A DNA stretch of 63,516 nucleotides. Origin: an uncultured Candidatus Saccharibacteria bacterium. Its GTDB lineage: Bacteria; Patescibacteriota; Minisyncoccia; Phycocordibacterales; UBA9973. Where the stretch lies: assembly GCA_964384645.1 (NCBI GenBank), contig CAYLKL010000001.1:70856-134371 (forward strand). Direction: 5' to 3'. Positions 37,226 through 45,650 of this stretch are shown piece after piece (within the stretch, counting starts at the first letter, position 1; every line of letters begins with the position of its first letter). A program made the position numbers and the translations under genes. The notes beneath the pieces were generated by a model that saw only the letters and a list, made by a program, of their open reading frames with translations, searched no databases and was not told where the DNA came from.

Positions 37226-37280
37226 TAGAGAGATTATAGCAAGTATCTTAGTATGTTAGTAATTAGTATTTTAGACCTGT

Positions 37281-37379: not shown

Positions 37380-37781
37380 TTACTCCTTAATAAAAATATT
37401 GTGAACTTTTAAAAACTCCTTCAATTCTTTAATACTTTTTTCTCCTATATTTCTAAATTTCATAATATCCCAAATTGAATACTCTAAAAGTTCTTGTATT
37501 GTTTTTATTCTTTCGTGATTTAAGCCATTATAGATACGCCTACTAAGACCTAAATCTTTTAATGGGGTCTTAAGAAATATTCCTCTGTCCTGGATAACTG
37601 GGGCAGGTATTTTTTCCTGACTATCAGTAATTTTTTCAAACTCAATTCTTAATGTGTGTGAGGCGGGTATTCTAATAATATTTTTAAGAGTTAGGTCTTC
37701 GTCAATATAACATTTTTCCCTCAATATGACTTCTAGGTCTTTGAAATCTAGTGTGATTTCTGTAGGTGTGACTATTTTCAT
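37380..37781 (-). CDS. Protein with a standalone RNA polymerase alpha-CTD-like domain
   Basis: TPLKDLGLSRRIYNGL...IKTIQELL...KFRNIGEKSIKEL. Confidence 0.8.
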   Translation of the reverse strand: MKIVTPTEITLDFKDLEVILREKCYIDEDLTLKNIIRIPASHTLRIEFEKITDSQEKIPAPVIQDRGIFLKTPLKDLGLSRRIYNGLNHERIKTIQELLEYSIWDIMKFRNIGEKSIKELKEFLKVHNIFIKE

Positions 37782-37844
37782 TTTATGAAGTTTTAAATTG
37801 TTTATTTCATTCTAACATAGAAAATAAGTCTGTCAATATAGGTG

Positions 37845-38030
37845 TTATCGTTCGCCTTGAACTGTTTTGAGTATACGAACAAACGAGTACGAATGTTACG
37901 AAGTAAAAAATAATCTGTTTGAGTGAAGCGAGTTATTATTTTTAATGAGTGCGAGTTTCGTGAGTATTCAAAACAGTGAGTGGCGAGAGCATTTTTGGTT
38001 ACTTTTTGGCGGTTAAAAAGTAATTAGAAA
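37845..38030 (-). repeat. About 185-bp palindromic element, copy A
   Basis: Long internal inverted repeat. Shares ttactttttaacc.ccaaaaagtaaccaaaaatgctctc.cca and a terminal aaggcgaa with 44868-45056. Confidence 0.8.
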
Positions 38031-38467
38031 AATCTATCGATTTCAATCAATCTCTCGTTTTCATTTATATGTTTAATTAAAACCTTAAAACTTTTTCTTG
38101 GTAAAATCTTTTTTATTTTCTCTGGCCATTCTATAAGAACAAGATTTTTAGGACTCGTTATTATTTCTTGAAAACCGAGTTTTTCAATTTCTGATTCTGA
38201 TTCAAGCCGGTACGCATCAACATGAACTAAAAGCTCAAAATCCTTATTTTCTAATTTGTAGTTTCGCATTATTACAAATGTCGGTGACTGCATTAATTTT
38301 TCAATTCCAAACCTCTTCCCGATTGTTTGCGCCATTGTAGTCTTCCCGGCCCCCAAATCGCCCGACAACAATACAACGGTTGCACCTTGAGTATTGGCTC
38401 TTAGTTTCTTAGCGAAGCCAAGCGCCACACTTTCGAACTCTTTTAGATTTTTAGTTTTTATTAGCAC
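38024..38467 (-). CDS. tsaE: t6A biosynthesis ATPase TsaE
   Basis: GDLGAGKTT, SPTF, HVDAYRL and LIEWPE. GTG start. Confidence 0.95.
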   Translation of the reverse strand: MLIKTKNLKEFESVALGFAKKLRANTQGATVVLLSGDLGAGKTTMAQTIGKRFGIEKLMQSPTFVIMRNYKLENKDFELLVHVDAYRLESESEIEKLGFQEIITSPKNLVLIEWPEKIKKILPRKSFKVLIKHINENERLIEIDRFF

Positions 38468-43168: not shown

Positions 43169-44866
43169 ATGAGTGACATAGACGAAAAGAATAAAAAGTT
43201 CATTGACGACCTACATTCAAAGGAAGAAGAGGAACTTGTAGAAACTTTGGCACGTGATAAATACGGAATTCCCTCAATAAACCTAACAGGTGTCGGTATT
43301 GAGAATGAAGCTTTGAAACTTGTTGATGAAAAAAGGGCTCGCGAGCTCGAAGTTGCCCCTTTTAACATATCTGGAAAGATTGTTTCTATTGCTGTTCGAG
43401 CCCCAGCAAGAGACGATATAAGAATTCTAGAAGAAGAGCTAGAAAGGAAGGGTTATTTTATAAAATGGTTCATGGCTTCTCGCGCCTCGCTCCTAAAAGC
43501 CTGGGCACGTTATGAAGAAATCTCTTATGCAGCAAAAGTAAAATCTGGCAGTCTTGATGTGTCTGAAGAAAGTCTTAAAAAACTATCGGAAGAAATAAAA
43601 TCAGTTGAAGATGTTTTGAAAGCCGTAGAGGAAGTAAAAAACAACGACAACACACACAAAGTATCACGAATGCTTGAAATAATGATCGGTGGGTCTATTG
43701 GTATTGGAGCCTCTGACATCCACTTGGAACCAGAAGAAGTGGATGTTCGTTTTCGAATGAGAATCGACGGAATACTTCAAGAAATTCTTAGAATAGATTA
43801 CCCTACATTTAAATTTTTAAATTCTCGAATAAAACTTTTGGCAGGAATGAAACTTACAACCACTCAATCTTCTCAAGATGGAAGATTTTCTATTTGGCTA
43901 GACAAAGAAGAAATATCTCTTCGTGTTTCTGCAATGCCCGGAGCATACGGAGAATCAATAGTAATGAGAATTCTAAACCCAAAATCTATTCGTGTTCAAG
44001 TTGAAGAACTTGGTATGACTGATAAGCTATACAAACAAACACTTTCAGAAATTAAAAAGCCAAATGGTTTGGTTTTGATCACTGGCCCTACTGGATCTGG
44101 AAAAACAACAACTCTTTATGCTTTTATGCAAAAAATTTATTCTCCAGAAATAAAAATAATTACAATCGAAGATCCTGTTGAGTATCATTTGCCTGGGTTA
44201 AGCCAAACTCAAGTCGAACCAGATAAAGGGTACACTTTTTTTGAAGGACTAAAAAGCGCACTTAGACAAGACCCTGACGTAATAATGGTTGGAGAAATAC
44301 GAGACCCCGACACAGCAAAGACAGCTGTAGAATCAGCCCTAACTGGACACATGGTTTTCTCAACACTACACACAAACAACGCAGGCGGTGTTGTTCCCCG
44401 CTTAATAGATCTTGAGGTAAATCCGAAAATTTTAGTTTCAGCACTAAAGATGTCTATCGCGCAAAGACTTGTGAGAAAGCTTTGTGTTAATTGTCGAAAA
44501 AAAGTTCCCGCAAAAACTGAAGACGAAACACTTTTGAAAAAAATTGTTGACGACGCAAAAGCTGAAGGAAAAGATATGACAGAGTATGGAATAAACACCC
44601 AGCCACCGTATGAAATATTTGAAGCAGTTGGTTGCGACAAATGCAACAAAACAGGTTACAAGGGGCGAGTTGGTATATTTGAAGCAATTATTACAGACGA
44701 AGCTATGGAAAATTTAATTCCACAAAACCCATCTGAACACGAAATAAAAAAAGTTTCAGAGCGTCAAGGAATCTTGGACATGAAAGAAGATGGGGTTTTG
44801 AAAATACTAAACGGAACAACGTCTATAGAAGAAGTAAGAAGTGTGGTGGACTTAGAGGAAGAATAA
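43169..44866 (+). CDS. GspE/PilB family assembly ATPase
   Basis: ASDIHLEP, GPTGSGKTTTLY, TIEDPVEY, LRQDPDVIMVGEIRD, TGH, CxxC pairs, GYKGRVGIFE. Confidence 0.95.
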   Translation: MSDIDEKNKKFIDDLHSKEEEELVETLARDKYGIPSINLTGVGIENEALKLVDEKRARELEVAPFNISGKIVSIAVRAPARDDIRILEEELERKGYFIKWFMASRASLLKAWARYEEISYAAKVKSGSLDVSEESLKKLSEEIKSVEDVLKAVEEVKNNDNTHKVSRMLEIMIGGSIGIGASDIHLEPEEVDVRFRMRIDGILQEILRIDYPTFKFLNSRIKLLAGMKLTTTQSSQDGRFSIWLDKEEISLRVSAMPGAYGESIVMRILNPKSIRVQVEELGMTDKLYKQTLSEIKKPNGLVLITGPTGSGKTTTLYAFMQKIYSPEIKIITIEDPVEYHLPGLSQTQVEPDKGYTFFEGLKSALRQDPDVIMVGEIRDPDTAKTAVESALTGHMVFSTLHTNNAGGVVPRLIDLEVNPKILVSALKMSIAQRLVRKLCVNCRKKVPAKTEDETLLKKIVDDAKAEGKDMTEYGINTQPPYEIFEAVGCDKCNKTGYKGRVGIFEAIITDEAMENLIPQNPSEHEIKKVSERQGILDMKEDGVLKILNGTTSIEEVRSVVDLEEE

Positions 44867-44867
44867 A

Positions 44868-45056
44868 ATTTCTTTGTTACTTTTTAACCACCAAAAAGTA
44901 ACCAAAAATGCTCTCACCAGAATAAAGTTTTATTATGTAAACGAAATTCGTCCTCGCAAAAACTTTAAACTCCACTTCGACAAGCTCAGTGTCAAACAGA
45001 AAAGTTTTAGCCTTCGGACTCATTGGTTTTCATATATAAAACTTTATAAGGCGAAT
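44868..45056 (+). repeat. About 185-bp palindromic element, copy B
   Basis: Homologous to the reverse complement of 37845-38030. Contains cttcgacaagctcag. Confidence 0.8.
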
Positions 45057-45603: not shown

Positions 45604-45650
45604 CTACTAATATACTAATTACTAGAATACTAGAATACTAGAATACTAAA
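45604..45650. repeat. TACTAGAA octamer tandem tract
   Basis: Three exact units at 45620-45643 with degenerate flanks. Confidence 0.8.

Follow-up and report, generated by a model that had tools for sequence, protein, structure and literature searches.

A 63,516-nucleotide (nt) stretch from the genome of an uncultured Candidatus Saccharibacteria bacterium, referred to here as the window (C1:70856-134371 of the G000 genome, which spans 726 kb in 21 contigs and is 95.8% complete), carries two copies, A and B, of a non-coding repeat. The element is best read as a repeat of the repetitive extragenic palindromic (REP) or enterobacterial repetitive intergenic consensus (ERIC) kind that belongs to a cross-phylum superfamily. 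On balance, A and B are probably copies of a non-autonomous repeat that acts at the level of DNA, in folded form, and that is spread, lost, inverted and recombined between intergenic sites. The family is not specific to the candidate phyla radiation (CPR), and its core is common to several phyla, a point that was missed in an earlier note on this DNA.

That note had described two palindromes of about 185 bp, and both are present, in opposite orientation. Copy A, a full element of the A-type subfamily, occupies 37850..38025 on the minus strand (covariance model R1 match G000:C1:108705-108880(-), 87 bits), and copy B, a full element of the B-type subfamily, occupies 44875..45056 on the plus strand (G000:C1:115730-115911(+), 217 bits). 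The model was built from five B-type copies with a hand-drawn structure. The end common to A and B was found by a repeat finder as a 57-nt inverted match of 86% identity (37981-38037 versus 44863-44919). This shared end, the internal anchors and the terminal AAGGCGAA, all claimed earlier, were found in both copies. The stems said to differ in sequence and yet to pair, ACTGTTTTGA/TCAAAACAGT in A and ATAAAGTTTTAT/ATAAAACTTTAT in B, proved to be the same helix, P2, and the extra segment of copy B, CACTTCGACAAGCTCAGTG, is a hairpin, S2, that stands where copy A has GCTTCAC. The predicted fold energy is -31.2 kcal/mol for copy A (z = -3.9) and -38.9 kcal/mol for copy B (z = -3.3), and none of 200 shuffles folds as stably as either copy.

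The element is composed of a head and a rod. The 5' head hairpin, P0, has a stem conserved in sequence (GTTACTTTTT / AAAAAGTAAC), with a CAAAAA linker on its 3' side. P0 reads ATTACTTTTT-AACCGCC-AAAAAGTAAC in copy A (37998..38024, minus strand) and GTTACTTTTT-AACCACC-AAAAAGTAAC, followed by the linker, in copy B (44876..44902, plus strand). The rod is a long imperfect palindrome, the helices of which (P1, with TCGCC/GGCGA, and P2, P3, P4 and P6) are separated by conserved unpaired blocks, namely ACTCACGAAAYTC, TTCG..TC and TTKGTTCGTAT. The 4-bp helix P4 takes the form GTCC/GGAC, GGAC/GTCC, ACAC/GTGT or GACC/GGTC, depending on the copy. At the apex of the rod, the S2 hairpin is set between AACTC and TCAAACAG, and this AACTC/TCAAACAG junction is nearly invariant. 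By sequence, the junction is AACTC-GCTTCAC-TCAAACAG in copy A (37915..37934, minus strand), and in copy B it is AACTC and TCAAACAG on either side of the S2 hairpin (44968..44999, plus strand).

Exactly nine full copies were found in the G000 genome by each of blastn, nhmmer and the covariance model, with E values from 1e-14 to 1e-46. Four are A-type (A1-A4) and five are B-type (B1-B5), with 92-95% identity inside each subfamily; copies A and B of the window are A1 and B1. Further homologues, which the earlier note had proposed to seek, do exist: the genome has nine copies, A and B included, and many more lie beyond it. All nine are intergenic, and they are spread over five contigs in both orientations. 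A2 and B5 are arranged tail to tail, about 12 nt apart. Each copy had been said to begin at the 3' end of a gene, which is true of A (tsaE) and B (gspE) and does not extend to the family: only A1, B1 and B5, three of the nine, start at or within 9 nt after the stop codon of a co-directional gene, and six of the nine have a divergent gene on the head side. At the locus of B2 (C7:20990-21590), a promoter region of about 50 nt (GTTTTAGTTTTGCTCACTTTACACTTCTAATATATAYTTGTCAAA) is duplicated on either side of a block that consists of the copy, a terminator and a minus-strand open reading frame (ORF) of about 88 codons. The block resembles an insertion during which the promoter of the gene that precedes an apparent uvrC, named from its N-terminal sequence only, was copied.

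Covariation was measured in a model-guided alignment of 22 full-length copies from eight genomes. Standard pairs are formed in 91.8% of cells, compared with 38-50% when the partners are slid by one to three columns. Both sides have changed in 42 of 54 pairs, a value reached by none of 500 shuffles (shuffled mean 25.5). Given that the alignment was fitted to the model, these figures are somewhat inflated, and the margin is still large. Helices P1, P2, P3, P4, P6 and S2 vary freely in sequence and remain complementary, as when CACT/AGTG in S2 is replaced by TCCT/AGGA in copy B3, and the pairs of P0 are kept in 98.6% of cells, four of them compensated. The claim that structure is conserved over sequence is therefore borne out, far above both the slid and the shuffled controls.

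The core of the element can be followed across phyla by a signature of 24 fixed bases, AAAAAGTAACCAAAAA-N55-85-TCAAACAG, for which fewer than one match is expected by chance on a rough estimate. The signature matches at least 120 stretches from Bacteroidota, Proteobacteria, Campylobacterota, Saccharibacteria and Parcubacteria; given that this set was gathered by exact pattern, divergent members are under-sampled. The matches include Saprospiraceae, Haliscomenobacter, Emticicia, Chitinophaga, Prolixibacteraceae and Rikenellaceae, as well as Gallionella, Ferrigenium, Methylotenera, Thiomicrorhabdus, Sulfuricurvum, Ilyobacter and Caldithrix. Haemophilus paracuniculus, Acinetobacter lwoffii, Saccharibacteria, Parcubacteria and Nomurabacteria are also matched, as is one IMG/VR contig. 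Counts of a 16-mer reach 87 in a Saprospiraceae metagenome-assembled genome (MAG), 31 in Thiomicrorhabdus, 21 in a Parcubacteria MAG of 0.8 Mb, 8 in Haemophilus paracuniculus, 7 in Ferrigenium and 4 in Emticicia, and the reversed 16-mer is found 0-1 times per genome in the same six genomes. Across the phylum, allowing one mismatch in the 16-mer produced too much noise in AT-rich genomes for prevalence to be estimated.

Common to the phyla are P0, the linker and an apical junction in which helix S1 encloses the conserved bases (S1-AACTC-S2-TCAAACAG-S1'). Minimal versions, in Acinetobacter, Caldithrix and others, consist of this core alone, and the repeat unit ranges from 175 to 380 nt overall, that of Thiomicrorhabdus being about 380 nt. 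S1 pairs in all 70 distinct copies despite differing sequence, S2 covaries too, the junction is conserved in the 70, and length variation sits at the helix tips. The neighbouring genes are unrelated from locus to locus and mostly of the housekeeping kind, as are those that were checked (for GDP-mannose dehydratase, LpxB, a porin, an ABC-F protein and the small subunit of ribonucleotide reductase), and inverted neighbouring elements bracket such genes in Thiomicrorhabdus. No neighbouring protein recurs among the 120 cross-phylum loci, where the largest cluster comprises 8 loci at scattered positions. At gathering score, Rfam 15 has no match to the window or to any of 15 cross-phylum loci, and at E<=10 its matches are of chance level only. 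Nothing was found on the element in the literature, in searches that included its sequence words. Annotated collections hold only unannotated partial matches in Acinetobacter baumannii chromosomes, and none in phages. In A. baumannii NZ_CP077849.1, a chromosome filed as a plasmid (L196 2500-2640), a variant with P0, linker and closing stem has a different apical loop, AACCTGC...GGGCAGG rather than AACTCGC...GCTCAAACAG; it is unannotated and lies behind a membrane-protein gene that is LysE-type by eye.

Comparison of relatives gives evidence that the element is gained, lost and rearranged. Within the family as defined by GTDB, copies occur in 14 of 401 genomes and 7 of 45 genera, and their presence differs inside genera; other families of the order, represented by one genome each (32 in all), gave no copy. 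The congener G001 keeps B2 and B3 at orthologous sites. Its counterpart of the A2/B5 site holds a single P0-like hairpin between unchanged flanks, and its counterpart of the A4 site retains P0 with the linker and, ahead of a T-run, a short closed remnant of P1. The orthologous sites of A1, A3 and B4 are without the element in G001, as is the place of copy B, where a canonical terminator and different DNA come after gspE. In genus g41, one orthologous intergenic site is empty in G119; in G096 it is occupied by the element and a second hairpin module, a block that G109 has in inverted orientation. Recombination between subfamilies is indicated by mosaic copies of G004 (L027/L028), where the left arm comes from one subfamily and the right arm from another and pairing is lost, and by a copy of G001 (L020) with a B-type body and an A-type apex.

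Two further features of these sites were observed. Copy B4 sits in the fusA-tuf region, between tuf and an SDR-like gene, where G001 instead has a 417-aa ORF (G001:C2:3178-4830, L032 2116-3369), which again suggests a variable slot in the fusA-tuf gap. In genus g41, the repeated hairpin module that follows the element (CCATACTTTTAAAAAG...CTTTTTAAAAGTNATGG, about 120 nt, then a GTTTTCCGGAAAC block; G096:C2:134030-134200, with G109 and G119; L064, L073, L074) also occurs alone at many other sites of those genomes, as does the GTTTTCCGGAAAC block.

The earlier note had suggested a linked gene for an enzyme of the HUH class, such as a REP-associated tyrosine transposase (RAYT), or of the GIY-YIG class. 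A linked HUH/RAYT gene was not found. Y1_Tnp genes are present in 4 of 8 carriers and 3 of 12 non-carriers in the GTDB family and absent from carriers such as G435 (21 copies), G096 and G109, and none of the 20 Y1 loci checked has an element within about 1.5 kb. The sole IS200-type TnpA of the G000 genome (C20:65-620; Y1_Tnp, 147 bits; copy C20:152-508) has end hairpins, CGTC-TTCA-GACG and CGAC-TTCA-GTCG, that are unlike P0, and contig C20 holds no element-like sequence. Mobilisation by RAYT or IS200 enzymes was rejected, given the lack of linkage to Y1 genes and the unrelated end hairpins. This IS200-type copy appears to truncate an ATPase gene (AAA/OLD-like by eye, cut at 114 aa), which adjoins a cluster read by eye as DNA methyltransferases and restriction-modification genes. 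A linked GIY-YIG gene was not seen either, and the MUG113 (GIY-YIG-like) gene at one Ferrigenium locus is merely cargo.

The earlier note had proposed selection on an RNA or single-stranded DNA fold. The DNA branch of that proposal fits better, and the branch of a non-coding RNA (ncRNA) is disfavoured. In the well-aligned pairs of the family alignment, 15 G-U wobbles are counted against 19 A-C mismatches, and among mismatches flanked by Watson-Crick pairs in the cross-phylum helices, 5 are G-U and 11 are A-C. Of 117 distinct copies drawn from many phyla, 45 have a co-directional gene upstream and 42 a divergent one. The copies have no sequence in common upstream of P0, such that no promoter travels with the element, and chimeric copies that are unable to fold persist, as do truncated ones. 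Because G-U is not above A-C, orientation is random, no promoter is common to the copies and unfoldable copies persist, a function at the RNA level is disfavoured, and a single-stranded or cruciform DNA fold would, as judged from sequence, fit better. The word TGTCAA stands 7-9 nt before P0 in A2, B2, B3, B4, the G001 orthologue L020 and both G016 copies. Its reverse complement is a consensus -35 box, which is joined each time by a 17-18-nt spacer and the TAnnnT -10 box of the divergent neighbour, and the word is also kept at a G001 site without element bodies. The idea that the copies are independent small RNA genes with an extended -10 box (TGTCAAATT) was rejected, given that TGTCAA is the -35 box of the divergent neighbour.

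Several observations weigh against action at the DNA level, and most of these favour the main rival, an RNA-level function of the conserved core. The repeats would then be a structured ncRNA gene family, or an RNA module active wherever it is transcribed, akin to a ribonucleoprotein RNA or a small ribozyme; P0, the A-rich linker and the AACUC/UCAAACAG loop would form a tertiary or protein-binding core, and the copies would have been spread by duplication. The best-conserved nucleotides are central, in the apical junction, and not only terminal, a pattern more usual in functional RNAs or motifs bound by protein than in classical transposons, and conserved unpaired nucleotides flanked by freely covarying helices, with length variation confined to the helix tips and a core kept across phyla, are as an RNA would have them. 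In G023 and in G016, old copies that have diverged within the genome have nevertheless retained the fold, which hints at selection on each copy. On the forward strand, the 70 apical S1 helices hold 19 G-T and T-G pairs against 9 A-C and C-A pairs, a weak excess to which misaligned GC-rich copies contribute in part. In copies from Bacteroidota, the bases that follow the linker are, by eye, complementary to the P0 loop, and one change is compensated (CTTGAT/ATCAAG to CTTGAC/GTCAAG); such a pairing would possibly form an RNA-type (H-type) pseudoknot. Mobility itself is also open to objection. No terminal inverted repeats or target-site duplications were seen, with the element ends defined to within a few bases; no empty site was cleanly and sharply bounded, the flanks being diverged or rearranged; and no mobilising enzyme was found among the candidates tested, so that transposition is inferred from polymorphism and not demonstrated. 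The RNA explanation is nevertheless judged unlikely. In addition to the rarity of G-U, the random orientation and the persistence of unfoldable copies, neither a promoter nor a terminator accompanies the element, related genomes have anywhere from 0 to 87 copies, the distribution is patchy even within genera, and Rfam has no match.

Two other explanations give the element a partner enzyme. According to one, it is a guide or accessory RNA of a transposon enzyme, present as orphan copies, such as the bridge RNA of IS110, the omega RNA of TnpB or the tail of a diversity-generating retroelement (DGR). The bridge RNA of IS110 is about 180 nt long, has a 5' stem-loop and is encoded at the left end of the insertion sequence (IS). 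The element is similar in size, also has a 5' stem-loop and, in Ferrigenium straubiae (G438), where six IS110 copies adjoin six of seven elements, lies directly upstream of the transposase ORF. In an alignment of the six copies, however, the IS (1.45 kb, with a 340-aa transposase) lies inside the element at one fixed point, between ...CCTGACCAGCCTGCGC and TACTCGGCGGCGC..., and uninterrupted copies in related genomes are continuous across that point. The element is therefore a target of the IS and not its bridge RNA, which was rejected. The loops of the element are also conserved and its stems variable, the reverse of guide loops, and an IS110 gene is absent from G000, from most CPR carriers and from the genomes with 21 and 87 copies. 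TnpB was not found, and its omega RNA was rejected likewise. Reverse transcriptase (RT) genes are present in 6 of 8 carriers and 6 of 12 non-carriers; one adjoins the element only in G004, where a truncated RT gene lies 200 nt from one copy, and a covariance model search of 12 RT loci gave the element only at that known locus. The link to RT is not general, and the tail or another component of a DGR cassette was rejected. A guide or accessory RNA is thus scarcely credible.

According to the other explanation, P0 is the core site of a site-specific recombinase, with two 10-bp inverted arms and a 6-8-bp spacer as in dif, lox and pdif, and the rod is accessory. Head-outward pairs would be the product sites of cassette integration, which would explain framed cargo genes. 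The geometry of P0 does fit the core site of a tyrosine recombinase, and in Ferrigenium two head-outward, IS-interrupted elements frame a single accessory gene at each of two loci, MUG113-like at one and TIR-domain at the other (G438 C1:1629800-1635000 and 2017500-2023100; L197, L198). Exactly one P0-like hairpin is left at the A2/B5 site of G001, and the whole block is inverted between G096 and G109. However, compensated changes in the P0 arms (GTTCC/GGAAC, CTTAC/GTAAG, ACCCC/GGGGT) fit a hairpin better than a duplex read by a protein, and the P0 sites flanking A2/B5 are each internally symmetric rather than the hybrids expected after recombination. Most copies are solitary and without cargo, and no recombinase is linked. 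A recombinase site is accordingly considered quite improbable, less so than a guide RNA.

The repeat of folded DNA that is preferred here has several likenesses among known systems. ERIC sequences, or intergenic repeat units (IRUs), of Enterobacteriaceae and Vibrio are imperfect palindromes of about 127 bp. Like the element, they are long intergenic palindromes in either orientation relative to genes, vary in copy number between relatives, carry insertions at fixed internal points, occur beyond one species, have no known transposase and would form a rod when transcribed. The element has, in addition, a sequence-conserved P0 with an A-rich linker and an invariant asymmetric apical junction, and its core crosses phyla, whereas that of ERIC crosses only families. 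We know of no sequence similarity between the two, which are set apart here by description and not against the ERIC consensus. As an intergenic imperfect palindrome in either orientation, with presence/absence polymorphism and no encoded protein, the element falls in the ERIC-like class, which is a functional class and not a sequence family. It also behaves as a dispersed repeat of the type that the earlier note had named, that of REPINs (REP doublets forming hairpins) and palindrome-associated transposable elements (PATEs).

REP sequences, with their compound forms, the bacterial interspersed mosaic elements (BIMEs) and REPINs, are mobilised by RAYT enzymes of the Y1 HUH type; they are 20-40 nt long, GC-rich and species-specific, and they flank the RAYT gene (PMC2817692). 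Like these, the element is a dispersed palindrome that occurs as singlets and inverted doublets (A2/B5), has compensated stems and is a target of the IS110 family, but its unit is 175-380 nt, its core is cross-phylum and no Y1 gene is linked to it. It differs from a PATE derived from IS200/IS605 in that its ends are unlike the hairpins of the resident IS200. Classical bacterial miniature inverted-repeat transposable elements (MITEs), such as Correia/NEMIS, RUP and cargo cassettes of the MIC231 type, have been reviewed (PMC3184786). The element resembles them as a non-autonomous, multi-copy repeat with insertion polymorphism and, in some lineages, cargo-framing pairs, but its head and tail are unrelated and no parent IS has the same ends. 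No target-site duplication was seen at the nine G000 flanks, where the boundaries are soft and a very short duplication is possible. Integron attC sites (RYYYAAC...GTTRRRY) form co-oriented arrays behind cassettes, whereas copies of the element are dispersed in both orientations and its ends, by eye, misfit the attC boxes. In short, the element works like an ERIC- or REP-type repeat but fails the tests that define REP-RAYT systems, PATEs, classical MITEs, attC sites, bridge RNAs and DGR components.

Within the window, both copies lie close to genes. The stop codon of tsaE (38024..38467, minus strand; Pfam TsaE, 2.2e-34) abuts the head of copy A. Directly past the tail of that copy is, by sequence, a consensus promoter, TTGACA-16-TAGAAT (37809..37836, minus strand), which drives the next gene, for a 133-aa stand-alone protein with a module like the C-terminal domain of the RNA polymerase alpha subunit (37380-37781, minus strand; Pfam RNA_pol_A_CTD, 1.8e-16). 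Copy A thus lies between a stop codon and a promoter. A secretion ATPase of the GspE/PilB type (43169..44866, plus strand; Pfam T2SSE, 1.5e-113) ends 9 nt before copy B, which occupies the gap between the convergent gspE and a 147-aa gene, a gap with no other predicted terminator. A separate small repeat with a TAGTA-like word (AGTATCTTAGTATGTTAGTAATTAGTATTTTAG) forms an inverted pair, I8, in the window (37242-37274 / 45607-45639, 85% complementary), and a similar TAGTA-type stretch, GTTAGTAATTAGTATATTAG, is present at the 3' end of gspE in G001 (G001:C1, L035).

A mechanism consistent with these observations can be proposed for a repeat that acts as DNA. The element would fold as a hairpin or cruciform, or as single-stranded DNA. 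A trans-acting enzyme that processes the folded strand would recognise it by P0 and the apical junction, and the variable helices would need only to pair. Where copies lie in transcripts, as do A behind tsaE and B behind gspE, the rod is probably also a stable 3' structure; copy B sits where the congener G001 has a normal terminator. The elements serve in turn as landing sites for an insertion sequence of the IS110 family, and in bacteria of the Gallionella type, head-outward pairs surround single accessory genes. More tentatively, and with considerable doubt, P0, the A-rich linker and AACUC/UCAAACAG may be a module conserved from the CPR to Bacteroidota and Gammaproteobacteria that is read by a widespread trans-acting machine, and that has been co-opted in some lineages as a holder with two arms for exchangeable defence cassettes and as a landing pad for IS110.

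As a rule, small palindromic repeats are confined to one species or genus. In the present case, repeats in at least five phyla have a 24-base signature and a defined fold in common. The carriers include CPR genomes of 0.7 Mb that otherwise have little non-coding DNA, and in these the repeat reaches 9-21 copies. The repeat also breaks metagenome assemblies, given that, in one MAG, many of the 87 copies are no more than about 150 nt from the end of a contig. It attracts IS110 insertions, and in iron-oxidising bacteria pairs of elements frame accessory and defence-type genes. Sharing across phyla points to a conserved recognition system, so far undescribed, and P0 and the junction provide a handle with which to seek it. 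If the conserved module is indeed read in this way, it would be a new kind of structure-guided mobile element, or else a new multicopy ribonucleoprotein or catalytic RNA.

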